The translations under genes were made by a program, and so were the position numbers. This document shows, piece by piece, positions 979-22,908 of a DNA stretch of 64,000 nucleotides (its first letter is position 1; every line of letters begins with the position of its first letter). The DNA is taken from contig CBDFMQ010000002.1 of assembly GCA_965249725.1 (NCBI GenBank), positions 640,001 through 704,000 of the forward strand, read 5' to 3'. The DNA comes from Longimicrobiales bacterium. Lineage in GTDB: Bacteria > Gemmatimonadota > Gemmatimonadetes > Longimicrobiales > Gaopeijiaceae. The notes below the pieces were generated by a model that ran no database searches, was not told where the DNA came from, and saw only the letters and a program-made list of their open reading frames with translations.

Positions 979-2034
979 ATCCTCGCACACGTCCGCTCGG
1001 CTTCCGTACAGGGGGTCGAGAGTTACTCGGTCTCCGTCGAAGTGAATCTGTCCGTGGGGCTGCCCGCGTTCGTCGTCGTCGGGCTCCCACAGGGTGCGGT
1101 CCGTGAGGGACGGGAGCGCGTTACCGCCGCGCTCCACAATGTGGGGCACGCCCTTCCTCCCCGTCGCATCACGGTGAATCTCGCTCCTGCGGATGTGCCC
1201 AAGGAGGGAAGCGCCTTCGATCTACCCATCGCTGTGGGCCTTCTCATCGGAATGGGCGTCATCCCTCAGGATGGAGTAGACGGTCTCTGTCTGGTTGGGG
1301 AGCTCGGCCTGGGTGGACGTCTGAGGGCCGTGCGCGGAGCGCTCCCGATCTCCGCCGGCTGCAAGGAACGGGGTGACGGTGCGCTGATTCTGCCACGGGC
1401 GAACGCGAGAGAGGCAGCCGGAGTCGGGGACCTGGAGGTCTTCGGGGCCGACGACTTGCGCTCGGTCGTAGACCACCTCGTCGGAGGTCGGAGCATCGTG
1501 CCCACCACGGTGGACTCCGGTCGGCTCCTCCGTGACCCTCCACCGATGGCCTCTGACCTCTCAGAGGTACAAGGACAGGAGTTCGCGAAGAGGGCCCTCG
1601 AGATCGCGGCCGCGGGCGGACACAACCTGCTGCTGTTGGGACCTCCGGGGTCGGGGAAGACGATGTTGGCGCGACGGATGCCGGGAATTCTGCCTCCCCT
1701 CACGGTCGCCGAGTCCATCGAGGTGACCAAGATCCACTCGGTCGCGGGGCTGGTTCCCGAAGGGGGATCATTGTTGGTGGGGCGGCCCTTTCGGGCTCCT
1801 CATCACACGGTGAGTGACGCCGGGCTGGTGGGAGGAGGGGCGGTCCCGAGGCCCGGTGAGATCAGCTTGGTGCACCAAGGAGTCCTGTTCCTGGACGAGC
1901 TCCCCGAGTACCGCAGGCATGTACTCGAGGCGTTGCGTCAGCCGTTGGAGGATGGGGTGGTGACCCATGCGAGAGCCCGTTCGGCCCTCCGATACCCTGC
2001 GCGATTCATGTTGGCCGGAGCGATGAACCCGTGT
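979..2034 (+). pseudogene. comM: YifB/ComM Mg-chelatase-like AAA+ ATPase, 5' portion, interrupted by the integrative element
   Basis: [21 protein letters not shown], Walker [39 protein letters not shown], then an unrelated tail to the stop at 2124. The expected start position (GGAG RBS 7 nt upstream) is ATC at 979. Confidence 0.93.
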
Positions 2035-3541
2035 TCCCGCGTTGCCTTGTTGCCACTGTTTGAGGGGAAGAGAGGGAGGGGTTGGGTTCAGTTTCGAGTG
2101 GAAGGTAGGCGAGTTCGATCGTAACCTCGTCTGTACCGATCACGATGGCCTGTACAAGGTTTTCGACGATCTGACGCTTCTCGTCGAACCCGAGTTCACC
2201 CCACCGGCTGTATAGGTTCCGTGCTTCCGACAGGATCTCATCGGAGGAAAGGAATTGAATGCGAAGGAAGTCGACCTCTCCCTGGAGCCTTGGGATTTCC
2301 TCATCCAGCTGTTGGAGGCGCTCATCGAGAGGTCGGTAGAGGGTGCCGAAAGAGTCGACCGTCAGTTCGTCGTTGACATAGGCTCGGTAGATCTTGTCTC
2401 GCTGGGTGTCTACCGTTTGGCGCTCTCGCTCCATTCCTTCAAGAAGCTCTTGTCGTTCCTTGAGGACCCCATCGGCCTGTTCGAGATAGGTGGACATCTG
2501 CTCCGGTGAGAGGAAGAAGCCCTTGAGTTGCTCTTCGAAGACAGCTTCCAGATCAACGATGGGGATCTTGTTGCGACAGCCTGAACAGACGTACTTCGGC
2601 GTGTTGGACGGCACGTACATCTTCCGTCCACAATGGCACCGCGTCACACCGGCAAAGAGCTGCCTGGGCTTCCTGCCACGCTTCTTTCTCGATCGACGCT
2701 GGTCCTGGATGATCGCATTGACCTGGTCCCAGAGTTCTTCAGACACGATGGCGTCAACGGCATGCCACACCCATTCGCTCTCGGGCTTCTTCTTCCACGC
2801 CTGCCCCTCGCCGAGGCTCTTGGTGTAGTTGGCTCGCCTCCAACCCTTGGCCGTGGGGTCCTGGAGGAGCCTATCCACGGTCGTATCGGAGAACCGAGCA
2901 CCCTTGCGGGTTCGGTGACCCAAATCGTTGAGCAATCGTGCGACCGTCTTCTTGCGCTTGTGCTCCAGATAGAGCTCGTACATGAGCCGCCGGACCGGCG
3001 CTTCGTCTGGGTCGGGTACGAGTTTGGCGTCGTCCCAACGGTACCCGAATGGGGCGGCACCCCCCAAGGGCTTGCCCATCTTGGCTCGGACGACAACGGA
3101 GGCAGCGACGCGGTCCGCGATTTCCTCCCGTTCCCATTGGGCCATGGCGGCGATCATCGTATAGAAAAGGCGCCCGGCCGGAGAGCTGGTATCGATGGCC
3201 TCTTGGAGGGAGACGAGATCAGCGTCGTGTTCCCGGAAGTAGTCGGCGAAGTCCAGAAGCTCTCGGGTGTTCCGCGCGAGCCGCGCCAACTTGGAGAAAA
3301 TGAGGCCGGTGATTCGTCCCTTTCGGACATCCTCCATCATGCGCTTGGCTTCCGGATGGGCCATGACGGACTTCCCGGACACGGCTTCCAGGTGGTAGAC
3401 CTCGTGCACCTTCCAGTCCTTAGCCTCGGCGTACATATGGGCGCGACGTTCGTGGTGCTCAGGACTGTCTCCGTGAGCTTGGTCTTCGGTGGAGACCCGG
3501 ATCCAAACCCCGACGGACTTCGGTGCTTCCCGCTGCGTCAT
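2006..3541 (-). CDS. Large serine recombinase (integrase), 511 aa in the integrated state
   Basis: Catalytic WIRVSTEDQ motif, SKLARLARN, recombinase domain (APFGY), zinc ribbon (CHCG...CSGC) and coiled coil. The last codons and the stop come from the antisense strand of comM across the att site. Confidence 0.95.
2031..2055. other. Left att junction: GTGT core plus 21-bp attP arm TCCCGCGTTGCCTTGTTGCCA
   Basis: The reverse complement TGGCAACAAGGCAACGCGGGA matches 22884-22904 at 20/21 nt and starts exactly where comM homology stops. Confidence 0.9.
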
Positions 3542-3703
3542 GAGATTTCCCAGCTACGCATGGGGGATGTGGTGTGTATTCGGCTAATATTCGGTCACGA
3601 TCGTTTGTGGTCAAGCGAGGACGAAAAGCTCACGCGGGTAGAGGATAGTTGCGCCCGCAAAACTGAGGCGCGTTCGTATCGGTCCGATCGGCAGAGACGG
3701 TGA

Positions 3704-3720
3704 GGTACTGTCAACTTGAG
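3704..3720 (+). repeat. IS6-family left inverted repeat GGTACTGTCAACTTGAG
   Basis: GG(C/T)ACTGT-type end just upstream of an IS6-family transposase. No matching right IR was found. Confidence 0.65.
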
Positions 3721-3743
3721 GCCGGTCCCTGCAGACTCCGCGG

Positions 3744-4319
3744 ATGAAGACGAATTCAAGTAGCTATCGCGGCCACCGGTTTCCGACTGAGATCATCGGC
3801 CACGGCGTGTGGCTGTACTATAGGTTCTCCATGAGTCTGCGCGACGTTGAGGAACTCCTGGCGAAGCGGGGCATCACCGTCACCCATGAGACCATCCGGC
3901 AGTGGTGTATGAAGTTCGGTCCCAAGTACGCGCGAAGACTCAAGCACCGCCAGGGCAGGCTCGGCGATATCTGGCACCTGGACGAAGTCTTCGTGAAGAT
4001 CGGGGGCGAGCGTCACTATCTATGGCGGGCCGTGGATAAAGATGGGGATGTGCTCGATATCTTGGTTCAGCGATACCGCAACGCTCGCGCGGCCAAACGA
4101 TTCTTCCGCAAACTACTGAAGGGGCAGGGAAGCCAGCCGTGGCAGCTGGTGACCGATAAGCTGAAGAGCTACGGCGCCGCGCACCGAACCATCATGCCCT
4201 CCGTAGATCACAACACGGAACGCTACGCGAACAATCTGGCTGAAGTCTCGCATCAGCCGACGGGACAGCGAGAGCGTCAGATGCGAGCTACTTCCCGATA
4301 CCGTCGAGCTAATTTCTAA
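3744..4319 (+). pseudogene. IS6-family DDE transposase, 3'-truncated
   Basis: YRGHRFP..II...VWLY.RF..S.RDVEELL, WHLDEVF, YLWRAVD, VTDKL, NNLAEVSH. Similarity ends at RERQMR; 191 aa, shorter than a typical ~230-aa IS6 transposase. Confidence 0.85.
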
Positions 4320-4444: not shown

Positions 4445-6877
4445 ATGGGTGGATCGAGGATGGACGTGAAGGTCGCGGCCCGCACGCTCGTGAGGTCGCC
4501 GGCCTTCGCCGGCTTCGCAGTCGCGACACTGGCGCTCAGCGTCGGAGCGGCTACGCTGCTCTTCTCGGTCGTGAATGGCGTACTGCTCAGCCCGCTGCCG
4601 TACGAGAGTCCAGACGAACTCGTCGCAATCTACCTCACGAACGACGAGTGGCGTGAGAGCAAGAACGAGCTCCTTCGGCGCAACTGGGACACCTACACCA
4701 TGTCGCTCGGTCACATCGAGGCCTTCCGGCAGACGCCCGGGCCCATCGTTGGCGTAGCGGGTTACGCGGGCCGGGTGATGCCGCTCGACAGCGGGGACGG
4801 CGAGGAGGAAACCGCCGAGACGGTGCTCGTGGATGGCGAGATCTTCTCGGTTCTGGGGGTCGTTCCGTCCCTGGGGCGGCTCCCCAGCCCGGACGAGATT
4901 CGCGAAGGGGCCCCGGTCGCCGTGCTGCGCGACAACACCTGGGCCGACCGCTTCCGGCGCGACCCTGACGTGCTGGGCCGCACGTTCGGCCTCGGAGACC
5001 GCACGTACACGGTCATCGGCGTGATGCCGCCGGGCTTCTTCCTGCCGTCCGAGGACGCGTCGGACCTGTGGGTGCCCGTGACGGAAGGAGAGCGACGGTG
5101 GCCCTCGTTCTCCGGGGTTGCACGCCTGGCGCCCGGCGCAACCATCGCGGAGGCGAGCGGCTTTTTCGAGCAGGTCGCACGCCGCGTCGGCGAGGAGGAC
5201 CCCGAGCGCTCCGGGCTCGGCGGGCGTGCGATCTCGCACCTCGAGAAGGTCGTCGGCGGGGTCAGCGGTGGCATCCGACTCCTCTTTGGCACCACGCTCC
5301 TCGTCGTTCTTGTCGCTTGCGTGACTCTCGGCAACCTCTTTTTGGCACGTGCCTCGGGCCGGCGCCAAGAGTTGGCGGTGCGCGCGTCGCTCGGCGCCGG
5401 GATGTGGTCGCTCACCTCTACGGTGCTGGCCGAGTTGCTCTTGATCAGCCTCGTGGGCGGCGGTCTCGGCGTCGCGCTAGCCGCATCCGGCGTCGATCCG
5501 TTCGTCGCGGCCCTCCGCACTTCCCTCAGGCGGCTGCCCCGCCAGGGTGCGATCGGCCTGGACGGATCAGTACTCGTATTCTCACTCGCCGCGACGCTAA
5601 CCGTAGCGCTCGTGGCCGGATTGGTCTCGACGCTCGCTTCGCGAAGGTGGACAACCGCGAATGCCATCACCGACGTGCGCCGATCGGGTGGGAGTGACGC
5701 CACAAGGATCGGGCAGCGGCTGGTGCTTGTCGTGCAGGGCGGCATGACCGTCGTTCTCGTCTCAGCGGCCGCCCTGCTGGGCCGTAGCTTCTTGGCCGCC
5801 ATGTCCGTCGACATCGGGATGAGGACCGAGAGGGTGGCCGTTCTGCGGGTCGACTCGGACCGCGAGACCTACCAAGAGCCTGAGGCGCTCGCGAGGGTCC
5901 AGGAAGCGATCCGCGCCGCTGTGGGGGCCCTTCCCAATGTGACCGCGGCGACTACCGTCTGGTCCCTGCCAGGTACGGGGGGCGTGCTCTTGCGCCCGGT
6001 CCGGCGGGAGGACACCGAGCCGGACGCCGCCGTGCAGGTTACCGCGGTTCCCGCCGGCGAGGGCTACTTCGCCACGATGGGAATCCCCCTCCTCGCCGGT
6101 CGTGGCTTTCGCGCTGGCGACGGCGCTGGCGACCGTCGCAAGACGGTGGTGAGCGAGAGCCTTGCCACCGAGCTCTTCGGCACGCCCGACGTGGTGGGAC
6201 GACGCTTCGTTCAGAGTACCGGTGACGAGCTGAGCACCCTGGAGATCGTCGGAGTGGCCGCCGAGACGCGACAGTTCTCGGTCTTGGCGCAGCCGACCCC
6301 GACGGTTTACGAGCCGATGGAGGGCACGGGCTCGCACAGCTTCTACGTGACGATGGCCGTCGACGGAGACCCGACGACCGTGCTCGGCGCCGCACGGGAG
6401 CGCGCCCTCGCCGTCGACGGGACGCTGGAGATCAACCAGGCATCGACCTTCGATGCGATGCTCCGCGACAGTGTCAGGCACATTCGGTTGCGGATGATTC
6501 TCATGACCTCGCTGGCAGTGCTGGCCGGCGTCCTGGCGATGATCGGCATCTCCGGCGTGGTCGCGCACTTCCTCTCGGAGCAGACGAGGGAGGTCGGCAT
6601 CCGGATGGCGCTCGGCGCTACGCCGCACCGTGAGATCGGTCGGGTCGTGCTCCACGCGTTCCTGCCGACGGCCATGGGTGTGGCTATGGGTGCGGCCGTC
6701 GCAGTGAGTGTGTCCGGCGTAATGGAGGGCTTCGTCTTCGGTGTCGAGCCGAGCGACCCCGTCACTTACCTCGCGGTCGCGATTGTGCTCCTCGCGACGG
6801 CGGCGGTGGCTGCCTTGATCCCAGCGAGCCGCGCGGCCACCGTGGACCCGGCGCGTGTGCTGAACCACGAGGACTAA
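4445..6877 (+). CDS. ABC transporter permease, duplicated MacB/FtsX type (ADOP-like)
   Basis: R.L.RSP.F...AV.TLAL.VGA.T..FSVVNGVLL.PLPY, RRQELAVRASLGA, REVGIRMALGA, PASRAATVDP. GAGGAGG RBS upstream. No ATPase gene adjacent. Confidence 0.9.
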   Translation: MGGSRMDVKVAARTLVRSPAFAGFAVATLALSVGAATLLFSVVNGVLLSPLPYESPDELVAIYLTNDEWRESKNELLRRNWDTYTMSLGHIEAFRQTPGPIVGVAGYAGRVMPLDSGDGEEETAETVLVDGEIFSVLGVVPSLGRLPSPDEIREGAPVAVLRDNTWADRFRRDPDVLGRTFGLGDRTYTVIGVMPPGFFLPSEDASDLWVPVTEGERRWPSFSGVARLAPGATIAEASGFFEQVARRVGEEDPERSGLGGRAISHLEKVVGGVSGGIRLLFGTTLLVVLVACVTLGNLFLARASGRRQELAVRASLGAGMWSLTSTVLAELLLISLVGGGLGVALAASGVDPFVAALRTSLRRLPRQGAIGLDGSVLVFSLAATLTVALVAGLVSTLASRRWTTANAITDVRRSGGSDATRIGQRLVLVVQGGMTVVLVSAAALLGRSFLAAMSVDIGMRTERVAVLRVDSDRETYQEPEALARVQEAIRAAVGALPNVTAATTVWSLPGTGGVLLRPVRREDTEPDAAVQVTAVPAGEGYFATMGIPLLAGRGFRAGDGAGDRRKTVVSESLATELFGTPDVVGRRFVQSTGDELSTLEIVGVAAETRQFSVLAQPTPTVYEPMEGTGSHSFYVTMAVDGDPTTVLGAARERALAVDGTLEINQASTFDAMLRDSVRHIRLRMILMTSLAVLAGVLAMIGISGVVAHFLSEQTREVGIRMALGATPHREIGRVVLHAFLPTAMGVAMGAAVAVSVSGVMEGFVFGVEPSDPVTYLAVAIVLLATAAVAALIPASRAATVDPARVLNHED

Positions 6878-7043
6878 GAGGCGCAGCCGGGCGAGCTCTC
6901 TCCTTCAAGCGGATCGGGGGCGCGACCGACGGCCGGCCGGGGGATGCTGCCCCTCACCCGGCTCGTGCGTCCCCCTGCGGGACCCGCCTACGATTGCCGC
7001 AGGATGGGCGACGCCGGGCCCCTCGACACCCAGACCTACTTGC

Positions 7044-7246
7044 CGGAACGAGGCGCTCCAGTGCCACTACCGGATCGAGAGAGGGTGTGTGCGGGGCGGG
7101 ATGGAGACGCGTATATCTCGCGGAGGATCTTCGCCACGGAGGCGAGCTCGCGCTCAAGGTGTCCGATTCCGGAGTCCGCGCGTTGGCTGACTCGGGCCGT
7201 TTGTTTTGCAGGAGATCAAGATTGTCGCGGGCATCACGCATCCGCC
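7044..7246 (+). pseudogene. Degenerate N-terminal fragment of a Ser/Thr protein kinase
   Basis: Three frameshifted segments: RNEALQCHYRIER..RGGM / VYLAEDLRHGGELALKV / LQEIKIVAGITHP, corresponding to kinase subdomains I-IV. Confidence 0.7.
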
Positions 7247-7777
7247 TGGGCCGTACCGTCGCTATTCGAAAAAAGTAGGCGCATCTTCGTCGAGGCGAGG
7301 CGCTGGAGTGCCGGTGCTAATACCGCAAGCGACGGGTGTTTCCTTTCTTCCGCAGGTGAAGAGGGTGTAGATTGCGGACAACCACAGCATCTTGCACCTC
7401 TGTGTCATTGAGAGCGTCACGGCCACAGACGGCGGCGATCGATTGCCTTAGCTCATTGTACACGGTTGCACCAAATGCACTTCACCGGGGTGTGAAGCGG
7501 ATGAGATTCCAGTATCCTGCTCGACGAGGCAGAGCAGGATATCGGATCGTAGGATGCATCGGCTCAGCAAGAACCTCGCCGTGAAACACAACTGGTTGCG
7601 AGGGTTTGAGTCTTGCGATCCGAGGTTCACCGGTTCTTCGACTAAATGACGATTTCCCCCATTACGCGCTAGCTCAATCCACCGGTGTACCCTTCGCGAG
7701 GGCCCAGCTCCCTGATGGGTCGGGGCGCGTTTTTTTTGTTCCGTGCCGGACGGTGCAGGGTCACAGGAGTTGCTCAC

Positions 7778-10390
7778 ATGGCGAAACGGAAGGCCCGAAG
7801 ACCGGCGAAGGCCGAATCAGCCGTCCGGAAGCCAAATGCGGACGTCCCGCTTTGGCTAGTTGGCGGATCCTTTTTGGCGGTAGCCCTGTTTCTGTTCCGA
7901 GACTTCGTCTTCGGCGGTGGGATGCTGTTTGGGTCGGACACCGAGGCACTCGGGTACATGGCTCGAAAGTTCTTCGCGGATTCACTCAGAGATGGAGTGT
8001 TTCCCCTGTGGAACCCGTTGCTGTTCGGAGGTACCCCCTTCCTTGAATCGCTGGCCGGAGGCGATTCCCTTTATCCGCCGTCGGTCCTCTTGTTGCTCGT
8101 CATGCCGCCCTTTCGAGCGTTGGGATGGAAACTCGTGCTCCATCTTCCTATCGCCGCGTTTGGGATGTACGGGTGGACTAGGTGCTTAAGCCGAACACGT
8201 TCTGCGGCCTTCGTGGCTGGCCTCGGCTTCATGGTCGCACCGTTCTTCGTGACCTTGGTCTTCCCCGGTCACGACGGAAAGATATTCGTGACCGCGTTGA
8301 CGCCTTGGCTCTTCTGGGCAGTCGAGCGGTTCTTTTCTACCGGTACCCGATCGTCGTGGACTGCCGTGGGTGTGGTCGTTGCTCTCGTAGCGCTGACCAC
8401 GCACTTCCAGATGGCGTACTTCCTGTTCGTAGCGGTCGGTCTCTACGCGGGGTTTCGCGCCATGGTTATTCACCGGTCATCTCAAGAGGCAGGCGGTGAG
8501 CCGCGAAGGGTCCGCCGTAGCGGCGTGACCCGTTTCGCACTTTTCCTGACTGCTTCGGTAGTCGGAGCGGGAGCGGCAGGAATCCAGCTACTCCCCGCAG
8601 TCGAATACGTTCAGGCGGACTCTCGACGCTCAGCGACCACGACGGTAGCGTCCGCTGCGGTCAACAAGCAATACGCTGCTCAGTGGTCCCTGCATGCAGA
8701 GGAGGCCCTCGCTTCTCTCATCATCCCAGAGTTCGTAGGGAATTCACAGGCAAACGGGGAGTGGGCGCGGGGTACGTATTGGGGAAAGAACACCTTCAAG
8801 CTCAATCACGAGTACATGGGCTGGATTCTCGTGATGCTAGCCTGTTTCTCGGTGTTCAGCGCTGAGGGGCGTGGGATTCGTATCTTCATGCTAGCCCTCT
8901 TCGGTGTGTCGTTTCTATACACCCTCGGCGCGGCCTCACCAGTGTGGAACGGCCTCTACCACACCCTGCCCGGAATCAAGCTCTTTCGCTCTGCAAGCAT
9001 GGCGATTTTTCTCTCTGGGTTCGCCGTTTCCACTATGGCCGCATATGGCACGGACGCGGTGCTCTCTTGGGCACGCGGAGCTGAGCCGGTGCCCGCCGAG
9101 GCGCTCCGGCTGGTCTTGGGGCTCGTTGGCCTGTGTGCGCTATTGCTAGTCGGGTCTCAGACCGGAGCTCTCTTCTCCGTGTGGACCAGTCTTTTCCACG
9201 CGAATCTGGGGCCGGACCAGCTAGCCTCACTCCAGCGCGCCCGCCCGTTCATAGTCCGAGGAGCTTTCTTGGCGCTTGCATTTACCACAGCGTTTGGCGG
9301 CTTGGTATGGGCGGCGGCGAAACAACGCCTCGGCCCAATGACCATCACGGCCGTATTGGCGGTTGCTGTCGTGATGGACGGTGGACGGATAGACGCGCCC
9401 TTCATTGCGACAACAGACTTTGACGCGTTTTCCGCACCCAGCCAAAATATCCAGGCTCTCGTTGAGAGACAGCGGACCGAGACGCCCTTTCGCGTTTTCG
9501 ATTTTAATCGCCGAGGGGAGGAGACTCGGGCCGCGATGTTCGGTCTTGAGTTGGCAACGGGTCACCACCCCAACGACATGGCTCGCTATCGGGAACTGAT
9601 CGGGATGAGGGGTGGGGGGCTGCCGGAAAACCTTCTTCGGTCGATGAACGTCATGCGGATGTTGAACGTTCGGTACCTGATTTGGCCAGTGCGGCAAGCC
9701 GGGGCCTTAGAGGGAGCGACACCGATTTTCGCGACTCAGCTTGCCGACGGTTCGATCTTTGAAGCCGTCTATCAGATAGACGACCTGCCACGAGCTAGGC
9801 TTGTGGCCAACGCCGTGGTGAGGGCACCGGAAGCCGCCGTTAGCACCCTCATCGACCCCGCTTTTGACGTCACGACTGCTGCCGTCGTGGAGGAGCCTCT
9901 TGCGCTAGATTTAGGCGGGGGTGATGCGGCGGGCAACGTGGATTGGGTGACCCGTTCAACGAATAATGCTCGACTGAACGTGCAGACGGACCGGAACAGC
10001 CTCTTGGTGATCTCACGGAACTACCATCCCGCGTGGAAAGCGTTTGTGGATGGGGTCGAGGTTAAGACTGAGCGGGTGAACCACGCGCTTCTGGGGATTC
10101 CGCTGGCAGCAGGTAGCCATGATGTCGTCCTGACCTATGAATCTGACACCATCTCGGTGAGCCTCGCGGTCTCCATCGCGTGCTTGCTGATCCTAATGGG
10201 TGCTGGCGTGGCCCCGGTTGTTTGCAGCATGCGAGCCACTGCCCCGAAAATGCACCCTGACAAGCCGGATTCAGCCGGACCCACACGGAAAGACCCATCC
10301 CAGAACACCAACGGGGGCGGGCTCCATGAGACTCAGCGGGACGGAAGGCATCAACAGCAAGATCCAATGGACCAAGAACACCGGGCCTAG
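7778..10390 (+). CDS. YfhO-like multi-pass membrane protein (GT-C type glycosyltransferase)
   Basis: PLWNP.LFGGTPF motif, many TM helices, C-terminal LLVISRNYHPAWKAFVDG...VNHALLGI.L.AG.H.V. AGGAG RBS before ATG 7778. Confidence 0.8.
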   Translation: MAKRKARRPAKAESAVRKPNADVPLWLVGGSFLAVALFLFRDFVFGGGMLFGSDTEALGYMARKFFADSLRDGVFPLWNPLLFGGTPFLESLAGGDSLYPPSVLLLLVMPPFRALGWKLVLHLPIAAFGMYGWTRCLSRTRSAAFVAGLGFMVAPFFVTLVFPGHDGKIFVTALTPWLFWAVERFFSTGTRSSWTAVGVVVALVALTTHFQMAYFLFVAVGLYAGFRAMVIHRSSQEAGGEPRRVRRSGVTRFALFLTASVVGAGAAGIQLLPAVEYVQADSRRSATTTVASAAVNKQYAAQWSLHAEEALASLIIPEFVGNSQANGEWARGTYWGKNTFKLNHEYMGWILVMLACFSVFSAEGRGIRIFMLALFGVSFLYTLGAASPVWNGLYHTLPGIKLFRSASMAIFLSGFAVSTMAAYGTDAVLSWARGAEPVPAEALRLVLGLVGLCALLLVGSQTGALFSVWTSLFHANLGPDQLASLQRARPFIVRGAFLALAFTTAFGGLVWAAAKQRLGPMTITAVLAVAVVMDGGRIDAPFIATTDFDAFSAPSQNIQALVERQRTETPFRVFDFNRRGEETRAAMFGLELATGHHPNDMARYRELIGMRGGGLPENLLRSMNVMRMLNVRYLIWPVRQAGALEGATPIFATQLADGSIFEAVYQIDDLPRARLVANAVVRAPEAAVSTLIDPAFDVTTAAVVEEPLALDLGGGDAAGNVDWVTRSTNNARLNVQTDRNSLLVISRNYHPAWKAFVDGVEVKTERVNHALLGIPLAAGSHDVVLTYESDTISVSLAVSIACLLILMGAGVAPVVCSMRATAPKMHPDKPDSAGPTRKDPSQNTNGGGLHETQRDGRHQQQDPMDQEHRA

Positions 10391-10479
10391 CTTCGCCAGC
10401 CGCGCCAGCTTCCGCACTTGCACTGCGGCGGCCTCGACCTCTACCCACACAAGCTCTGATAGAGCCCCAGAATGGCACC

Positions 10480-11256
10480 TCAGTATTTGGGACGCAGCGC
10501 CCTCGACATGAGTAAGCGGGCGACTCGGACGAGCGTGTTCCCAACCCTCATCGACGACGGGGTCGGTTTGCGATCGTAATGAAGGTGAAACGGAACTTCC
10601 GAGATACGGGCACCAGCATCGATGACACGCAGTAGCAACTCGACCGCGGCGGCAAAACCGGGTTCGGTCACAAGTCGACCGTCGCGGCTAACGGCGGCGA
10701 TCCGTCGGAGCACGGACGCGTCGTAGGCACGAAGATTCGATGACAGGTCGGTCGTTACTCGCCCGAGGAGACGACTCACAACGCCGTTAGCCATACGGCT
10801 GACTGTGCGACGCGAAAGGGGAACTCCGACTTGCCTCGAGCCGGGAACATAGCGGGATGCCAATACGACGTCCGAAGCACCCCGCACGATGGGTTCTATC
10901 ATGGTCGGAATCAGACCGACATCGTGCGTGTCATCAGCATCCATCGTGACGATGATGTCCGCCGTTTCCAGGGCTTTCGACAAACCATCGTTCAATGCTA
11001 CGCCGAATCCGCTATTGACGTCGTGCGTCAAGCCACTTACGCGGTCGCCACGATGTTGTACTATGACGTCCGCCGTGCGGTCCGTGGACCCGTCATCGAC
11101 AACCAAGACCGAGAATTCGTACGAGGCCAATCCCGGCGCCACTCGGATCCGGTGGAAGATTCTTGCTAGTCCGTCCGCTTCGTTGTAGGCCGGAAGGACG
11201 AGCACCACGCGGGGGCTATAGCTCCCACGCTGCTGAGGGTCCAAAGCTTGTTCCAT
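10480..11256 (-). CDS. Glycosyltransferase family 2 (polyprenol-phosphate sugar synthase-like)
   Basis: LVLPAYNEA, VVDDGSTDRT, MDADDTH, SRY, EVPF..YDRK. Start uncertain (11256 or 11325). Confidence 0.88.
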   Translation of the reverse strand: MEQALDPQQRGSYSPRVVLVLPAYNEADGLARIFHRIRVAPGLASYEFSVLVVDDGSTDRTADVIVQHRGDRVSGLTHDVNSGFGVALNDGLSKALETADIIVTMDADDTHDVGLIPTMIEPIVRGASDVVLASRYVPGSRQVGVPLSRRTVSRMANGVVSRLLGRVTTDLSSNLRAYDASVLRRIAAVSRDGRLVTEPGFAAAVELLLRVIDAGARISEVPFHLHYDRKPTPSSMRVGNTLVRVARLLMSRALRPKY

Positions 11257-12471: not shown

Positions 12472-12724
12472 CGGGTGTCCTATTGGGTGCGATGCTCGGC
12501 TCTTCGGTTGGGGGTAGGGTTGTGTTTGTCCGCGAATAGGGCCGTTGTCGGATAGGTCACGTCATCTTTGAGGCGGGTCACCCTTCCGGGGTGGCCCGCT
12601 GCTCTCCTGTCGATCGATGGCCACGGGAACGCTCGTATCACACTGTCCCATTGGCGTCACCGGTCCGCACGCGGATGACCTGGTGCCTAACTAGGGTCGG
12701 GCAACAAAGCCATCCCCGGGGACG

Positions 12725-13304: not shown

Positions 13305-16300
13305 TCACGCGTCCTTTCCTCGAAGTCTCTTTGTGGCACCCAGGATGACCTTCGCAATGGCCTGGGTGCGAGTACTCTTGTCTCCTTCTTCGAGGGATTG
13401 GAAGCGCGTCTTCACCTTCCAACCACGGATGGTCTCCTCGCCGCCCGCTCCGTGGGCCTCGAGGGCCTCCAGGAATACGAACAGCTCTTCCGGCGTCAGG
13501 AACTCGATCCGAGAGAGGCTCTCTTCCTCAACGGCAGCCTCAACCGCCGCCTGAGCCCGACCCAGCACCTTCCTCTCCGGTGAGACCACCGCGACGGCGT
13601 CAAATCCGGCTGCCAAGCATTTCTGGACGTTCCCGACCTCTTGGTCTGGGGTACTCTTAACGGCTACCTCACAGGCCACTCGCTGCTCCGAGCGTTCAAG
13701 CGATACGTCCACCCGGCCCAGGCCGTCGAGGATCGGCTGCTCTACGGTGACGTGCCATCCTCGGCTTCCCGCCCAGCGCTTGATGAGTTCCTGGAGGTAG
13801 CGGTGTTGGGCGCCACCCCGACCGAGCGGTTGAGGCTCGGCGAGTTTGGTGGCTGCTAGAACCGGACGAGAGGCCCGACGAGGTGCAGGGGCCTCCTTGG
13901 GGATCTCCGGCGCTTCAGGCGGTGATTCCGGGGCCGTGGGAGGTCCAGGAGCTGAGGTGCGGCCCCGCCTGAGAGCCTCTTCCACGACATCGCGGGGTGT
14001 CCCGTACCTGGCGCGGGACAGCGCAACGATCCTCTGGACCCGATCCATTCCAACCGATGGTTCAAGCTCGAGGAGCGGCAGCGTCCTGAGGTTGAAGTCC
14101 CAGTCGGATCGCTCCACTCGACAAATCGCCTCCCCCCGACCCAGGCCGGAGAGGTCCTTCGCCTCAAACGAGGCGAAGCCCTCGGAGAGCTTGCGGGCGT
14201 CGCTGTCGCCAACCCGGAAGCAGACTCGCGTGGCAGGATTGCTGAGCACGGCGCTCGCTAGACCGGTGCCAGCTTGATCGAGTTGCGCGAGGTCCTGGTG
14301 AGCCAAGGTTAGGCCAAGGCCGTACTTGCGGGCGCCGCCCAAGATCTGGGTCATCGAGGGCGTAGCGAAGTGCTGAAACTCGTCCACGTATAGAAAGAAT
14401 GACCGTCGGTCGGCTTCTGCTTGTGCCTGCCGAGCGGCGGCGAGCTGTTGAAACTTGGCGGCTAGAAGCGAGCCAAGCAGATGGGCATTCTCCTCACCGA
14501 TGGCTCCCTGAGAGAGCCGGGCGAGGAAGATCTGCCCCTGGTCCATGATCTCGGCAAAGTCCAGGCGACTCTCACGCTGCGAGACCATCCGGCGAAGCGG
14601 CTTAGGTGCCAGGAAACTATCCAGGCGTGTGAGGAGCGGTCCCTGTGGACGGCCCGAGAGGAGCGGAAACTCACGCTGCCAGAAGTACACAACTTCCTCA
14701 TCCCGAACCGTCTGAAGGAAGGCAGTCCGAAAACCTGGCTCTACGAGGAAGCGCCGTAGATCAGCTAGGGTGCCGCCCTCGTCGGACTCCAGAAACGCCA
14801 GGACGGCATTACGGAGGACGGAGGTCATCTGGTCGCCCCAGCTGGTGGCCAGGCGCCTAAAGGCTGCCACGAGGTCGGAGGCGAGGAGGTTTCGCTCCAA
14901 CTCAGAGTGTGCGGAGAGAATATTGAACGCGATCGGGAAGTCCTCGTCGGCGGGATCGAGCAGAACAACGTCGCCGTGTCGCTCCTCGGGGATCCGTTCC
15001 AGTATCCGGTCGATGAGGTCGCCATGCGGATCGAGGACTCCGACACCCTCTCCGTTTTCGATGTCCTGTAGGATGAGGCTCAGAAGGAAATGTGACTTCC
15101 CTGTGCCGGTAGCCCCAAGAACATGCATGTGGCGCAGGCGGTGGCCGGATGGCAGGTGTACCGTGGCGGTCCGGCCTCGGTGGTCGTTCTCACCCAGCAC
15201 CAAACCCGGACCCTGTGTGAGGGTCGGGGCTTCCCTGGTGGTACGTCGCTCCCTGCGAAGGCTCTCAGAGCGCACTACTGGCGAGGGCAGGTGCACCAGG
15301 GCCACCAGCTCCCCAAGGTTCAAGATCATTCCGCTCCGGTGCGTTGTGCGCTCCAGCAGGTCGAGCTCGTGTTCGTCGTCCGGGTAGTCTGCGTTCGAAA
15401 GCGGGATGAGTTCGTTGGAGCCGGTGCGGGCCAGCGGGCCGAGTGCTCCCCCAACCGAGCGCACGATATCCCACGTTCGATCCTCATCTTCACTGCGCGC
15501 AGCGACCCGAATCACAGCGGCGAAGAGTGGCTCGGATGCTTTGGCACGAGCAAGCGATTTCGGTTCCGAGCCCTCCAGGAGTTCGGCGCCTCGGAGCATG
15601 TTCCCGGACCATGGATGACGGACACGCCGAAACAGCACTTGGAGGACAGCGACTTCTTGTCCTCGAAGACCTTCCATGGCGCCGACGATGCCGACGAGCG
15701 GGTCGGTCTGGAAACTCGTCCCAGTATCAAGCGGAAACAGGAACTCGTTTGAGAGTCCGAAGTCGACCAGGAGGGATGTGCCGATCTTGGCCTCTCCCCA
15801 GGCCTGACGAAGGGCCTCGGAACTCTCTTCGAGGGCGATTTCTGGAAAGTGAGCCAAGAGCTGGCGTTCCACCACGCCGGCGTCCTCACGTCGCGTTGCC
15901 CACTGGACCGTGATGGCCTTGCTGGTCCCGATGAGTTCGAAGCTGACCACATCAAGATGGGCAGGAAGGCTCGCCAAGACCTGACCCGCCACAGCCCCGG
16001 AGACCTTTAGATCTGGGGGTAGCGAGACCGAAAATTCTGTGAGATCTGGATGGGTCGCATCCAGATCGGGCCACGGCTCTTCCCCTTCGCTCGGACCATC
16101 GTCGGTGATGCCTGAGTCCGGCTCGCGCTCCTTCCTGACGAGTGACGCGACGAGCTTGCTGACCAACGTGGGCTTGTGGGCATCGTCGGTAAGAGTCGGG
16201 GCATTTGAAAACTCCGGGGGAAAGGGTCGAAACGGTGGCTCAATCTCCACGGCATGTGGCCACACCCACCACCCGCGTCCGCGGCGCTCCCACGCATAGA

Positions 16301-16361
16301 AATCGACAAGTTGACGCTCCGCTGGCGAGAGCGGGGCCGCTGCCGCGGTCGTGTCGTCCAC
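13305..16361 (-). CDS. VirD4/TraD(TrwB)-like P-loop ATPase with a C-terminal PD-(D/E)XK-like domain
   Basis: Walker A GATGTGKS, LDPHGDL, Walker B LYVDEFQ, ARKYGLGLTLAHQ, FRVGDSDA. Pro-rich linker, then H...E...RVDVSL...ACEVA. Start is GTG 16361 (just after the upstream stop) or ATG 16409. Confidence 0.85.
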   Translation of the reverse strand: MDDTTAAAAPLSPAERQLVDFYAWERRGRGWWVWPHAVEIEPPFRPFPPEFSNAPTLTDDAHKPTLVSKLVASLVRKEREPDSGITDDGPSEGEEPWPDLDATHPDLTEFSVSLPPDLKVSGAVAGQVLASLPAHLDVVSFELIGTSKAITVQWATRREDAGVVERQLLAHFPEIALEESSEALRQAWGEAKIGTSLLVDFGLSNEFLFPLDTGTSFQTDPLVGIVGAMEGLRGQEVAVLQVLFRRVRHPWSGNMLRGAELLEGSEPKSLARAKASEPLFAAVIRVAARSEDEDRTWDIVRSVGGALGPLARTGSNELIPLSNADYPDDEHELDLLERTTHRSGMILNLGELVALVHLPSPVVRSESLRRERRTTREAPTLTQGPGLVLGENDHRGRTATVHLPSGHRLRHMHVLGATGTGKSHFLLSLILQDIENGEGVGVLDPHGDLIDRILERIPEERHGDVVLLDPADEDFPIAFNILSAHSELERNLLASDLVAAFRRLATSWGDQMTSVLRNAVLAFLESDEGGTLADLRRFLVEPGFRTAFLQTVRDEEVVYFWQREFPLLSGRPQGPLLTRLDSFLAPKPLRRMVSQRESRLDFAEIMDQGQIFLARLSQGAIGEENAHLLGSLLAAKFQQLAAARQAQAEADRRSFFLYVDEFQHFATPSMTQILGGARKYGLGLTLAHQDLAQLDQAGTGLASAVLSNPATRVCFRVGDSDARKLSEGFASFEAKDLSGLGRGEAICRVERSDWDFNLRTLPLLELEPSVGMDRVQRIVALSRARYGTPRDVVEEALRRGRTSAPGPPTAPESPPEAPEIPKEAPAPRRASRPVLAATKLAEPQPLGRGGAQHRYLQELIKRWAGSRGWHVTVEQPILDGLGRVDVSLERSEQRVACEVAVKSTPDQEVGNVQKCLAAGFDAVAVVSPERKVLGRAQAAVEAAVEEESLSRIEFLTPEELFVFLEALEAHGAGGEETIRGWKVKTRFQSLEEGDKSTRTQAIAKVILGATKRLRGKDA

Positions 16362-16368
16362 CTGACGG

Positions 16369-17034
16369 CTACTTTCCGAGGAATTCTCGAAGGATCGGCT
16401 TGCGCTCAAACTCCGACATCAACGGGAGTCCTCCGTCCCGAGTCAGATCATCCACCACTTCATTGACGGCTGCCTGGACAGAACTCTGGAACATCAGCGT
16501 GGTGTCGATGCGGTAGTACGTTTCGGGGCTGAACCAGCGCTGATAGAGAGTCCCGAGAAGCGGCATCGCCACCAGGGCATCGTCCCAGCCCGCGACTTGG
16601 GAAGCCACGTAATTAGCGAAGAGCCAGAGGCACAGAGGCACCAAGAATGGGAGCAGGACCAGTGCTAGGAGGACTCCAACCACCTTCGTCATCACCAGGG
16701 TGAGGATGAGGGTTCCGAGGGTCAGCGCGGCAAGCGCCAAGGGGCCATATGGAGACTGGAGCCGCCCCAGCCACCAGGAGACGAAGAAGCCGTTTCCATA
16801 AGGGGCTCCGCAGACGTCGAAGACGAGACGACCTCGCTCGATGCGGAGGTACTCCCGCTTGGCTGAAAGCACTCCACCCTCGTGCCAATCAACCCGGGAG
16901 CGTGACGTCTCTGGGAGTTCACGCCTCTCAACGGCCTGCTCGACAGAGTCGTAGAACCCGAGTGGCGAGGCACTGAGGCCTTCGAAGAGCCGGTACCAGT
17001 GGGAAAGGACGGTGGGAGCGGCGCTGCCAGGCAT
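16369..17034 (-). CDS. Hypothetical membrane protein (about 2 TM) between the two ATPases
   Basis: AGGAAAGGAA RBS, central hydrophobic hairpin, TYYRIDT motif; tightly coupled to the downstream ATPase. Confidence 0.8.
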   Translation of the reverse strand: MPGSAAPTVLSHWYRLFEGLSASPLGFYDSVEQAVERRELPETSRSRVDWHEGGVLSAKREYLRIERGRLVFDVCGAPYGNGFFVSWWLGRLQSPYGPLALAALTLGTLILTLVMTKVVGVLLALVLLPFLVPLCLWLFANYVASQVAGWDDALVAMPLLGTLYQRWFSPETYYRIDTTLMFQSSVQAAVNEVVDDLTRDGGLPLMSEFERKPILREFLGK

Positions 17035-17195
17035 AGTCGGTTCCTTTCCTAATGGAACGTGGCCTGGGGGGTGCTATCTCAACTTGCGCACAAGGTACGT
17101 TGGGGCAGGGCATAGGCGCCAGGAAATTGACGTTGGAGTTGGTCGTGTCACCGCCGTCCGAGTGGACGACGCGGCCAACTCTAGACCGTTATGAG

Positions 17196-18431
17196 TCAGC
17201 GTAAGGAGTCGATCGAGACGGCCGAGAACGGTCGTGACACCTCACCCTCAACAAGAAGTCTGAGGTACATCTCATACCTCGGTAGCCCGATCAGGTCGTC
17301 GGACGAGAACACGGGGGCGAATTCTCGGGCGAGGGAGATCGCGTCCTGACCGCCGACTCGGAAGGACGCCAGGGTGCCCGTGTTGCCGAACACGGCGTCG
17401 CGGATCCCGGGCTCTAACTGACTCAGATGTTGATGGGCGAGAACCATGCCAATTTTGTACTTACGAAGTTCAGACAGCATGTTGGCGAGGGATTGCGTCG
17501 TGAACGTCTGGAATTCGTCGAGGTAGACCCAGAAGTCTGAGCGATCTTCCTCAGGCTGGTCGCCTCGCGAGAGCCCTGCGAGGGCGATGTGGGATAGAAG
17601 GAAGGAACCCAGAATCGTGGCAGGTCCCTCTCCGATCCGGCCTTTGTCCAGGTTAACCAAGAGTATCTTGCCTGAATCCATCAGACGGCGGAGATCCAGC
17701 ATCCTCCCCTGGTCAACTAGAATGCGGCGGAGCAGGGGGTCCACCAGTAGCCCGCCCACCTTGTTCTGGAGGGGCGCGATTACGACGGCCCGGAAGGCTG
17801 GTGAGTACCGGTCGAACTCATCGATCCAGAACCGCCGAACGACATCGTTCTCCAAATCGGCCACCAGATTCTTCCGGTAGTCCCGATCCGTCAAGAGTGC
17901 GGGGATGTCGCCCAAAGTGCCTCCCGGTGCCTCCAAGAGCGTGTAGACGACATTGCGAAGTAAGTGCTCTAGGCGAGGACCCCAGTCGTCGGGCCAGATT
18001 TTCCGGAAACTCTCGACCAGGCCTGCGGCAGCCAGTGGCCGATTCTCCGGCGAGATGCCGGCAAACGGGTTGAAATGCCACTCGAGCCTACGGTCCGGGA
18101 CATCGAGGTAGATGAGATCAGCGTGTCTCTCAGGAGGTATCTGCTCACGGACACTGGCGACTAGGTCTCCGTGGGGATCGAAGAGCGCGAATCCCCCCCC
18201 GGCGGCGGCATCCTGGGCGGCCATGACCCGGAGGAGTGTGGATTTTCCCGTGCCGGTCTTGCCTACCAGGTAGAAATGGGAACGCCTGTCTGCTTGGCGG
18301 ATGCCAAAGAGGGTGCCTGCGTTTCGATGACTGGTTCGGGCGAAGAAAGTGATGCGGCTGTCTGGGGTGGATGACATGGAGTCATCGTGCCTGAGACGGC
18401 CGTCTCCTGAAAGAGGTATGATCCTGCCCAT
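17196..18431 (-). CDS. VirD4/TraD-like P-loop ATPase (short, no TM anchor)
   Basis: DRRSHFYLVGKTGTGKS, FDPHGDL, WGPRLEH, Walker B VYLDEFQ, SELRKY, FRVG..DA. Start may be 18377. Confidence 0.88.
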   Translation of the reverse strand: MGRIIPLSGDGRLRHDDSMSSTPDSRITFFARTSHRNAGTLFGIRQADRRSHFYLVGKTGTGKSTLLRVMAAQDAAAGGGFALFDPHGDLVASVREQIPPERHADLIYLDVPDRRLEWHFNPFAGISPENRPLAAAGLVESFRKIWPDDWGPRLEHLLRNVVYTLLEAPGGTLGDIPALLTDRDYRKNLVADLENDVVRRFWIDEFDRYSPAFRAVVIAPLQNKVGGLLVDPLLRRILVDQGRMLDLRRLMDSGKILLVNLDKGRIGEGPATILGSFLLSHIALAGLSRGDQPEEDRSDFWVYLDEFQTFTTQSLANMLSELRKYKIGMVLAHQHLSQLEPGIRDAVFGNTGTLASFRVGGQDAISLAREFAPVFSSDDLIGLPRYEMYLRLLVEGEVSRPFSAVSIDSLR

Positions 18432-20731: not shown

Positions 20732-21088
20732 ATGGCAATAACTCGATCTGTCTCAAGGCACATGGTTCACTTGGTCCTCGCGATAGCTTTGGTACTCATG
20801 TCGGTATTCGTTCCGGTGGTAGTTGAGACGCGACATGAGCTGTCGGAGGTCAGGTTGGGGTTGCCGTTGCGATTTCTCACGCAGGATCTATCCGTTCTCC
20901 CCTATGGGAGGGGTGGAGACGCGGATCCGCTTCCCATAGAGCGGGCGCTATTGAGTCCGTGGGAGTACCCCTTCAGGGTGTCTCCTTTGAGGTTGGTGCT
21001 GGATGTCTTCATGACCTACTTCGTTATTTCGTTTGTTGCAGACATCTTTCGTGTGGTTATGGGGAGTGGCTCATCGCTTAGGAAGTAG
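20732..21088 (+). CDS. Hypothetical small membrane protein
   Basis: Two hydrophobic segments flanking GLPLRF; start uncertain. Confidence 0.5.
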   Translation: MAITRSVSRHMVHLVLAIALVLMSVFVPVVVETRHELSEVRLGLPLRFLTQDLSVLPYGRGGDADPLPIERALLSPWEYPFRVSPLRLVLDVFMTYFVISFVADIFRVVMGSGSSLRK

Positions 21089-22093
21089 AATCGTCTCGAT
21101 GGGATTGCCCTGAGAGGAGGCTGATCTGCGAAGCCCTTGGGTGATTGTACTGATGGGTTCCACGCTGGCAGAGAGGGGGAGGCTACTGTTCTCAACGAAC
21201 AAGAGCATCATGTAGGCTCGGACCTCTTGTGTGCCGAGCGGAGGCACTCGAATCGGTATCTGGATCAGCTTGTCGAAGTAGCTGGTCACCAGATTCTCGT
21301 TCTCGATACCCTCAAAATGACGCCGGACAGCGTGTTTGATCATCGCGTCGTCCGCCGCGATCACGAAGGCCGTGTTTTCGAGGAACAGGAGGAGCCTGAT
21401 GGCTTCAAGCGTCGAGATCGTAGTGGGCGGCAGACAGCGGTCCAAGTCGTCAATTAGCACGACAAGCGTTACGCCCAGAGCCGAGAGGGCTTCCGTGAAG
21501 CTCTGCCGGATAGCATGAATCTCTTTGGGTGGAGAAGAGCCCTGACTCGGCTTGAGTAGGCCGGAAGCTTCGGCCACGACTTTACCGGCGGTTGTCTCTG
21601 CCGCCTCAAGATCCTCGGAGGCCACCTCCCCAGCGAGCGCAGTCTTGCCAAGGCGCACAGCTTCACCGACGAGTCCGATTGGGGGGAGTCCAAGCGCTAG
21701 GGCTAGAGTAGAGCCTGCTGTCAGCTTCGCTGCTCGGAGCCAGTCAACCCGCCTGATCAGCTCCTGGACCTTATCGAGCCCGGTCTGTTCCTCCTCAGCC
21801 CTTCGCTCCAGCTCCGAGGCGATAACTTCGAGGAGAGAGGCTCTGGCATCGTCGTATCCTTGGTACAGCCACGCATTGAACTCAACGAATACGAACTTCG
21901 AATCGTCATCGTCGTCGCGCCCTTTGAGCGCGTCCCTGATGAGCTTTATCATCGACGACTTTCCGACACCCCAGGCGCCAGACACCCCGATTGACATCGG
22001 CTTGCCCTGCGCCTGGACGATGATCTCCGCGACCGTGTCGGCAACGCCGGTGAAGTTTAGAAAATCGCGTGCTGTCTCATTGTCGTGCCACAC
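21071..22093 (-). pseudogene. KAP-family P-loop NTPase, QatA-like, probably 3'-truncated
   Basis: GTG start with AAAGGAGG RBS; WHDNET..DFLNF, G.WG.GKSS, FNAWLYQGYDDA, IDDLDRC, YFDKLIQIPIR.P. The tail after ENSSLP looks non-homologous and overlaps a convergent ORF. Confidence 0.75.
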
Positions 22094-22474
22094 CGTCCGC
22101 CTCCTTTGAGCCTGCCCCAAAACCGGCCCGCACCTCGTTAGAGCTATCGAGACGCGTGATAAACAAGTTCAACGTTGTTATCTCCGACGTGCGTATAAGC
22201 CTCACGAGGCCGGGGACTTGCGAAGCGGTGCGGATAAGACGCTTATGGTGTGCCCTTGATCTCTCTGCACGTTCTACAATTGACCGGTCACGGACCTGCC
22301 TGCAAGGGGGGAGGGCAGGAAAGGTAAGCGTCGACCGGAAGGGCTTTGGATCCAGCCCAGCGGCGTCAATATGCCGGGAGAGCTCGCACCGCGCCACATC
22401 CCCGCGCTTCTCACTCGGCTAAGGAGTTGCATCAGGCTCCCCGACACTGAGCTGTTCCTGTACAGTCGGCGGCT

Positions 22475-22897
22475 CTAGTCGTCGAGGAGTTTCTTCAACC
22501 GCCCTTCATTCGTGGCGTTCGGTCGTTTCTGGCGGCTCTCCCAGGTTCGGACCGCGAGTTCGTCTACGCCGATGACGTCGGCCAGTTGCCGTTGGGTTAC
22601 CCCGTGCCTCCAGCGGTATGCCTTGAGCCGCTCCGGGAGCGAATCTCCACACTCCAGCGGTACGTATCCAAGAAATTCAGTGATCCCGGGCCCGTGCCGG
22701 AGGGCAGGGGCCACGAGATTCCGTTCCCAATTGCCAATCGTAGTTTTGTCGACTCCGAGCTGGGCACCCACCTCCCGTTGGAGCATGCCCATCTCTGTTC
22801 GCTTCCGTCTGATGTGGTCTCCGATTGTCTGAAGTTGGTTGGGATACCAGGGCGGAAGGGCTCTCGCCGCCCTGAGCGTGACATGGCAACAAGGCAA
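22475..22897 (-). CDS. Tandem XRE-HTH protein lacking a convincing start of its own; in frame with the integrase after circularisation
   Basis: Two HTH units (LQREVGAQLGVDKTTIGNWERN; TQRQLADVIGVDELAVRTWE). The called TTG start lies inside the right att arm with no evident RBS. Confidence 0.85.
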   Translation of the reverse strand: MPCCHVTLRAARALPPWYPNQLQTIGDHIRRKRTEMGMLQREVGAQLGVDKTTIGNWERNLVAPALRHGPGITEFLGYVPLECGDSLPERLKAYRWRHGVTQRQLADVIGVDELAVRTWESRQKRPNATNEGRLKKLLDD

Positions 22898-22908
22898 CGC
22901 AGGAGTGT
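22884..22908. other. Right att junction: 21-bp attP arm TGGCAACAAGGCAACGCAGGA plus GTGT core
   Basis: Inverted copy of 2035-2055 with 1 mismatch; comM coding sequence resumes immediately after it. Confidence 0.9.

Follow-up and report, generated by a model that had tools for sequence, protein, structure and literature searches.

Circularisation-dependent expression is known from Tn916 and ICEclc, where it arises via promoters reading across the joint. Integration of SSV1 reportedly splits its tyrosine integrase gene, and the integrated form of mycobacteriophage BPs is said to make a repressor that has lost its C-terminal degradation tag. The attachment site attP lies inside the integrase open reading frame (ORF) in archaeal viruses and plasmids whose tyrosine integrases are of the 'suicidal' SSV type (PMC7253208), and inside the repressor gene in the integration-dependent immunity of BPs (PMC4557955). 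Among predicted site-specific large serine recombinases (LSRs), 12.4% target the Mg-chelatase-like/comM gene, and competence genes are enriched among the targets (Durrant et al. 2022, PMC10083194). Here we describe a comM insertion in a 64,000-nucleotide stretch of the genome of a Longimicrobiales bacterium (GenBank assembly GCA_965249725.1, contig CBDFMQ010000002.1, positions 640,001 to 704,000), which is referred to in its full length as the window and whose own numbering is used throughout. In the window, comM is interrupted at a GTGT by a 20,870-bp element (2035-22904) that carries its attP within the gene of its own serine integrase.

In the reading that we favor, attP lies in the linker between the catalytic/DNA-binding core of the integrase and a C-terminal tandem Cro/C1-type helix-turn-helix (HTH) tail. 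Strand exchange at the central TG cuts the integrase gene; the inserted element then encodes a core-only enzyme ending in antisense comM, and the coding region of the tail is left at the far end of the element behind half an att site. Joining of the ends rebuilds one ORF (646 aa here), and selection holds both halves in the same codon phase. On the comparisons reported below, we put the probability that this split-gene architecture is real and selected at roughly 85%.

As in the SSV-type integrases, the site is inside the integrase ORF, so that integration splits the gene; there, however, a tyrosine enzyme is broken in two, whereas here the core of a serine enzyme stays whole and only its C-terminal HTH tail is lost. 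BPs likewise has its attP in a gene, and its free and integrated forms differ in the C-terminus of a protein, but the case of BPs concerns a repressor gene, a tyrosine integrase and a lost tag, and the present one an integrase gene and a lost, folded double-HTH domain. End joining also changes expression across the joint in Tn916 and ICEclc, where promoters are involved rather than the two halves of one ORF. The LSR elements surveyed by Durrant et al. share the enzyme class and the target, and the portion of that survey available to us mentions neither an attP within an ORF nor an HTH tail removed by integration (PMC10083194). In Wolbachia phage WO, sr1WO resembles the window element in layout and target, with a serine recombinase at one prophage end, HTH_XRE genes at the other and insertion in a Mg-chelatase gene; no fusion across attP is described for it in the available part of the report (PMC9203015). 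Engineered fusions that link an integrase to an RDF (recombination directionality factor) also place a module at the LSR C-terminus, where, in the sections of the two reports available to us, it sets the reaction performed (PMC5737554, PMC12286644). Those fusions are man-made and contain a known RDF, whereas here the fusion would be natural, made and unmade by recombination, and its module a tandem HTH.

An earlier note on this DNA, made from the sequence, had stated that its author knew of no such architecture in serine integrases. Our literature search, which took in PMC6070908 on Paenibacillus larvae phages and left aside the supplements of PMC10083194, likewise found in the portions available to us no description of an attP that separates a serine integrase from an HTH tail of its own. 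The preference of LSRs for comM, and attP sites inside tyrosine-integrase or repressor genes, are already in print; the split between a serine integrase and an HTH tail appears to be new.

The comM insertion and the rebuilt integrase gene

The features on which the argument depends are listed below, with the strand where one applies.

733..2034, plus strand: 5' part of comM, start codon uncertain, ending ...AMNPC at the crossover; ChlI and Mg_chelatase (profile positions 1-160 of 207), from tblastn and orthologs
2006..3541, minus strand: large serine integrase in its resident truncated form, 511 aa; Resolvase, Recombinase and weak Zn_ribbon_recom matches, S17, homologs
2031..2034: left copy of the GTGT common to attL and attR, with TG at 2032-2033 as the dinucleotide in its centre (on the strand of the integrase, CA)
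2035..2055: putative P arm of attP, within the integrase coding sequence, encoding ..ATRQRGN; inverted repeat I6, homologous arms
22475..22904, minus strand: candidate tail exon of the integrase, a double HTH (Cro/C1-XRE), open from the crossover; ORF 22475-22897, 140 aa
22884..22904: putative P' arm of attP, encoding ..PALPCCH in the tail frame; inverted repeat I6, homologous arms
22905..22908: GTGT of attR, central TG at 22906-22907, from the sequence
22905..23385, plus strand: 3' part of comM; Pfam Mg_chelatase positions 177-205 and Mg_chelatase_C, uninterrupted relatives

The inverted arms (2035-2055 and 22884-22904; 21 nt, 95% complementary) lie just inside the element beside the GTGT, and arms and GTGT together make up, by sequence, a quasi-palindrome of the kind that a serine integrase is expected to have as its attP, with a non-palindromic centre of 2 bp. 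An attP-like symmetry centre, CAACRC-N5-CA-N5-GYGTTGCC, is kept in seven intact sites. The integrase ORF passes through the left att arm before it stops in antisense comM, and the resident enzyme consists of 503 element-coded residues followed by eight from antisense comM. When the ends of the element were joined in silico, the frame read ...RQRGN^TPALPCCHVTL... and remained open for 143 residues past the junction, giving a rebuilt integrase-HTH ORF of 503+143 = 646 aa. The ORF, Pfam and repeat analyses agree with the ORF coordinates, the att site and the comM split that the earlier note had given, and its prediction of an in-frame integrase-HTH-HTH protein of 646 aa upon end joining was reproduced exactly.

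The uninterrupted comM site, ...ATGAATCCGTGTCCGTGCGG... (the empty attB), is present in two genomes of the same genus. The C-terminal part of comM lies in open frames of 510-640 aa in all 20 relatives that matched, out of 25 searched (the count includes the unpublished genome G063, without which it is 19 of 24), against 167 aa in the window. Contigs from three sequencing runs of other studies carry a near-identical comM (0-3 differences) whose fit ends at 2034, and beyond that position X6 and X7, the two contigs with coordinates to show it, continue with unlike sequence. The insertion was found within the comM coding sequence with gene halves on both flanks, which is how comM/Mg-chelatase LSR elements of the Durrant type are recognized. 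Judged from these sequences, the element is an island, one of a very widespread family, that a large serine integrase evidently inserts into one Cys codon of comM.

The integrase matched PF00239 (Resolvase; 1.1e-32, residues 13-157) and PF07508 (Recombinase; 1.7e-19), as well as Zn_ribbon_recom weakly (0.0059, below cut-off), and the cysteines C302, C304, C319 and C322 are invariant in its homologs. Across 20 integrase homologs S17, in ..RVSTEDQ, is invariant too and is by its motif the presumed nucleophilic serine, and residues 340-470, the only ones to indicate it, suggest a coiled coil embedded in the zinc-ribbon region. The tail matched HTH_3 over two stretches (53.3 bits, cut-off 23) and HTH_31 (37.5 bits, cut-off 27), and its nearest solved chains are those of 434 repressor, P22 C2 repressor, MBF1 and ICEBs1 Xre. 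No NCBIfam model matched the tail at its cut-off, the Xer activation factor family NF040522 giving a weak match below it. The 4.16-Mb genome contains a single copy of the integrase gene and a single one of the tail. Structure prediction for the integrase core (residues 1-503) and the tail as a complex gave a score of 0.26 against a mark of 0.32 and is evidence neither way.

Codon phase across the rebuilt attP and a second clade

A single case cannot exclude that the frame match in the window is chance, which has a probability of one in three, and conservation of the rebuilt integrase-HTH frame had been set beforehand, in the earlier note, as the decisive test. Integrase homologs number 5631 at E<=1e-20, most of them about 500 aa long, and the best 120 are 63-84% identical; the best 80 integrase loci are from metagenome-assembled genomes of many phyla. 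Among genome contigs taken from one genome per species, at least 547 of at least 598 pattern-matched stretches encode an integrase relative. The family was compared at the level of the locus, with 82 homologous loci examined. Antisense comM follows the integrase, with the same junction (CA + NGGRTTCAT), in 56 of these 82, and an HTH lies directly 3' of the integrase in six (L008, L011, L015, L020, L025 and L058). All six contiguous loci are single ORFs, of 641-836 aa, and the database protein P0056 (636 aa, 66% identical) is likewise a continuous integrase-HTH. Every contiguous junction reads as the symmetry centre given above, with an arm-core gap that is always 12 nt and a centre that is always CA.

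Phage and plasmid collections searched with P0056 returned matching records that were all less than 60% identical (24-30% among the matches listed), and by this measure the integrase family is absent from the cultured phages and plasmids of the searched collections. The phage collection gave 309 matching records, all below 60% identity, of which 3 begin with the word Wolbachia, and viral contigs yielded two distant integrase loci, both without a tail. Terminal direct repeats, a sign of a circular contig, were found in none of 18 short contigs.

Codon phase was taken as the codon position of the A in the centre CA and was set separately on the integrase and tail sides. Of 41 genomes that contain an integrated integrase, 35 matched a tail profile that included the arm-coded start; 32 integrase/tail pairs were tried, and both centres were located in 29. 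The phase was the same on both sides in 28 of the 29 pairs, and the frame was open for at least 120 residues past the junction in 27, the pair L054/L120 being in phase and open for only 112 residues. The sole out-of-phase pair, L009/L111, belongs to a decayed element: its integrase frame is stopped short of the centre, and its tail contains three stops. In the three pairs in which pattern placement failed, phase 0 was read by eye on both sides. One pair (L056/L083) uses an internal rather than a terminal module, and for L073 the pairing was made with two modules from the same genome.

On the integrase side, 56 junctions were assigned to phase 0 (47), phase 1 (8, two of them in broken genes) or phase 2 (1, locus L047), and 54 of the 56 integrated integrase genes are open as far as the crossover. 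The arms read ..QRN / ALPF.. in phase 0, to which most pairs belong, and ..ATRPH / VAFLPF.. in phase 1 (L017, L041, L050, L054, L073, L075 and the fused L020). Pairs L075/L109, L073/L119+L121 and L054/L120 are 1/1, and L047/L102 is 2/2. In a quick maximum-likelihood tree of 75 integrases, for which the careful search is unfinished, six phase-1 loci fall in one clade (Shimodaira-Hasegawa-like approximate likelihood ratio support, SH-aLRT, 98) together with the phase-0 loci L061 and L071, and the pair L061/L112 is 0/0 though L061 lies inside this clade. L054 is placed outside the main phase-1 clade with weak support (83), and L047 among phase-0 Bacteroidota loci. Changes rather than rows were counted, because kin are not independent; on this tree there have evidently been three or more changes of phase, every one of them involving both sides.

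With all six contiguous loci open, 28 of 29 pairs in phase and three covarying phase classes, the rebuilt frame is conserved. These results, together with the 28 tailed homologs of the Harrison integrase described below, rule out a frame match by chance, to which we give a negligible probability.

As a separate observation on the phase-1 tails, the open frame upstream of the one at L120 (G027:C92, about 1400-1500) has the sequence ..ALASMN.., which resembles a sense reading of the 5' part of comM, and this tail may be in frame with comM itself.

The earlier note had proposed a search of protein databases for full-length LSRs with a double-HTH tail, and such proteins exist: P0056, P0125, four long LSRs and the integrase of the cultured temperate phage Harrison. 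P0125 (628 aa), with the fragment P0124, belongs to a distant LSR clade and has a closely similar tail. In the tail-profile search the best 150 matches were mostly multi-HTH repeat proteins, and the 35 long matches that were scanned include only four LSRs, which measure 994-1121 aa and carry several HTH repeats. The top of this search was occupied by P0126 (4162 aa), P0133 (2332 aa), P0168 (2059 aa) and others, with up to 22 HTH-unit repeats; Pfam found no recombinase domain in P0133 or P0168, the two of these three that were scanned.

The tail also matches the C-terminus of the annotated integrase in Paenibacillus phages Harrison and Paisley. The Harrison integrase (L136; NC_028746.1 27358-29445) has 695 aa with Resolvase, Recombinase and zinc ribbon regions and two HTH at 573-681, and its linker holds an inverted repeat with 20-nt arms. 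P0277, by its NCBI name a chromosomal recombinase of P. larvae (560 aa, 30 member sequences), is the same as the Harrison protein at 541 of the first 542 residues, after which come 18 unrelated ones; the break falls in the spacer of the inverted repeat, about one codon off the repeat's centre. The best 120 Harrison homologs comprise 28 with the tail (664-722 aa) and 92 without it (528-641 aa). In the 92 tail-less homologs, which include every one named from isolate genomes, the match ends at query residues 510-542 and is followed by a median of 18 other residues. Some of the added ends (..VRAGIG..) read like the CPCGY region of comM in a shifted frame, which suggests that Harrison-type integrases may have the same comM target in the other orientation. 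By these alignments, the Harrison and P. larvae enzymes represent a second LSR clade with what is evidently the same split.

Points of doubt and a possible start within the arm

Several observations weigh against the split-gene architecture. The phase classes are few, and the tree on which their changes were counted is the quick one, its careful search unfinished. Some tail modules contain stops, L101 and L103 are without a recognizable arm, and the 646-aa frame of the window is the product of joining in silico. The contiguous forms may not be free circles: L015, L025 and L058 are on contigs of 348, 682 and 91 kb, and comM is uninterrupted in three of the five genomes with a contiguous form, in one of them on the very same contig. 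At L046 the centre of an attP-like palindrome is followed after seven codons by a stop, and there is no HTH; P0007, seen as protein and not as DNA, ends ..TPAVPLAT* and may resemble it. At L025 the tail breaks off inside the first HTH and unrelated sequence follows. An in-frame TTG, finally, lies in the arm in 27 of 27 modules, and a loosely defined Shine-Dalgarno (SD)-like motif precedes some in-frame start in 12 of the 27, this start being the arm TTG in ten.

The fused ORF of L025 (11483-12503) has 836 aa, probably by a deletion linking the tail to a downstream gene.

The arm TTG would matter most if the HTH were an ordinary separate regulator, made in both states from this codon, with the open frame across attP a functionless read-through. 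The TTG is the sole canonical start in several modules, the window included: there, the stretch from the upstream stop to the first HTH helix contains just one ATG, GTG or TTG, namely the TTG that the arm has at 22895-22897. In-frame ATG codons upstream of the first helix occur in only six of the 27 modules. The SD-like sequence at the arm TTG is often supplied by antisense comM, in the form of purine runs upstream in 10 of the 27, and gene callers list many stand-alone proteins of 140-230 aa; integrase-less arrays, moreover, retain intact HTH modules. The earlier note had held that the HTH has no convincing start or ribosome-binding site of its own. As regards the latter its view stands, no SD-like motif having been found before the arm TTG of the window under the loose test, but a candidate start exists in the in-frame TTG. 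This TTG belongs to the conserved arm sequence, however, and its presence is therefore no evidence of use. A separate regulator also leaves unexplained the joint phase change (28 of 29 pairs, three classes) and the lack of any stop between core and tail in the six contiguous loci and the 28 Harrison-type proteins, and we regard this explanation as improbable.

The split-gene architecture also bears on the linker between the arm and GDH, the opening of the first HTH. It measures 26 codons in 22 of 27 modules (range 24-27), its length differences are whole codons, and L-R/K, K/R-P and Y-P are conserved in it at an overall identity of about 35-45%. Since the linker lies beyond the inverted arms, we read its conservation as a constraint on the protein rather than on the att site.

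Several intact modules of a P' arm and a double HTH are present in each of a number of comM islands: L113 (G029:C41:12000-31000), L114 (G030:C57), L115/L116 (G035:C4) and L117 (G032:C2). The modules of a stack share one strand and are spaced 3-10 kb from each other, and there is only one integrase, at the far end. Antisense comM adjoins the first module; the internal ones are preceded by other sequence and the same CA centre, and, in G032, by repeated pieces of the comM 3' part. The stacked modules look like integrase-less cassettes built up by accretion.

Further observations concern other loci of the family. At L016 two integrase genes of this family stand tail to tail, 55 nt apart (10001-11443, plus strand; 11498-12979, minus strand). 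At L009 (8289-9788) and L010 (8430-9929) the element contains an apparently intact comM, which shares the strand of the integrase and lies about 70-210 nt upstream of it, with the host comM split; these may be replacement copies. At L030 (3910-4329) and L063 (3142-3516), what comes after the integrase is the 3' part of comM in sense orientation, in place of the antisense 5' part, which suggests insertion in the opposite orientation or rearrangement. L018 and L033 are on contigs that were binned as archaeal (Thermococci and Thermoplasmatales); their integrases belong to this bacterial family and are nearly identical (branch lengths about 0.04), which could be due to mis-binning or to inter-domain transfer.

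Two proposed forms of one integrase

To judge from the life cycle, a naive recipient has the circle only, and therefore the full-length integrase-HTH would have to perform integration; the inserted copy encodes the truncated enzyme only, and this form would therefore be the one present when excision starts. With different forms in the free and inserted states, the two directions would be served by different isoforms. Whether inserted copies can leave again at all is questioned by an explanation in which integration is a dead end, 'suicidal' as in SSV-type elements, the truncated enzyme inactive and the inserted copies decaying relics. Integration does cut the integrase gene, and decayed copies exist (L009/L111, and the stops in some modules). 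What is lost, though, is the tail alone, with the Resolvase, Recombinase and zinc-ribbon/coiled-coil regions intact, and the great majority of integrated integrase genes are open to the crossover (54 of 56). Near-identical enzymes also occur across many phyla, for which repeated excision and transfer would be needed, so that we consider a dead end very unlikely.

The remaining genes of the window element are as follows.

3744..4319, plus strand: IS240-type DDE transposase ORF, 191 aa, cargo (Pfam DDE_Tnp_IS240)
4445-6877, plus strand: cargo MacB/FtsX-type permease (Pfam; cargo block 4445..11325)
7685-10390, plus strand: cargo YfhO-like membrane protein (Pfam)
10480-11325, minus strand: cargo GT2 glycosyltransferase (Pfam)
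13305..18431, minus strand: backbone TrwB/TraD-like coupling-protein-type ATPases of 1034 aa and 411 aa with a 221-aa ORF between them (Pfam TrwB_AAD_bind, TraG-D_C)
21071..22120, minus strand: cargo KAP-family P-loop NTPase (Pfam KAP_NTPase, 2.1e-61)

By its gene content, the element looks like an integrative, probably mobilisable, island rather than a phage. The transposase ORF adjoins the integrase promoter region and may mark the entry of cargo between the integrase and the ATPase backbone. In a scan of small genes beside the integrase, 23 loci were found to have one cluster of related ORFs in the 4 kb upstream of it, the other clusters being present in at most 16; the member at L015 is an ORF of about 1040 aa that ends 23 nt before the integrase.

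The Pfam scan recognized no separate RDF among the window proteins, in keeping with what the earlier note had reported, the conserved ORFs beside the integrase not having been checked as RDF candidates. RDFs are, to our knowledge, not defined by any sequence family. The tail itself, or a free HTH protein of the inserted state, could then be the RDF of the element, and the rebuilt gene a natural integrase-RDF fusion. Engineered integrase-RDF fusions work, according to the available parts of both reports (PMC5737554, PMC12286644), and the second of these, in the part available to us, holds that LSRs with C-terminal extensions may in some cases be without a cognate RDF and may possess 'an alternate solution to directionality' (PMC12286644). 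The weak, below-cut-off match of the tail to the Xer activation factor family NF040522 points the same way. A fused RDF would favor attLxattR, yet the fusion would arise only in the excised, integration-bound element, and the tail is a generic Cro/C1 HTH that varies from two to more than six repeats; we find it quite improbable that the tail acts as an RDF.

Under the split-gene architecture, the tail would instead be a state-specific regulatory domain. As it is a generic Cro/C1 HTH, a DNA-binding role confined to the time after excision would be natural, and we tentatively suggest that it may bind DNA, for autoregulation or for control of the element genes only after excision. That it modulates synapsis and directionality is a suggestion we make just as tentatively. 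More doubtful in our view is the broader proposal that the directionality of this integrase class is set by recombination itself, without a separate RDF, the full-length enzyme integrating and the truncated one excising or becoming permissive, with the integrase-less cassettes of P' arm and HTH serving as alternative tails for a single integrase.

Serine integrases are prized in genome engineering for their strict directionality, and for many of them it is still open how this is set when no RDF is known, a point raised in PMC12286644 for LSRs with C-terminal extensions. With the comM site accounting for the share of site-specific LSRs given at the outset, the arrangement would extend to a large part of the LSR elements found in nature. 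What the annotation of a bacterial genome gives as the integrase (511 aa here) would then not be the protein that performs integration, and LSR catalogues compiled from prophages would list truncated enzymes with host-coded ends. Phage Harrison and P. larvae would provide a cultured system for a direct test. If the architecture is as proposed, serine integrases may have a built-in way to tell the inserted from the free state.

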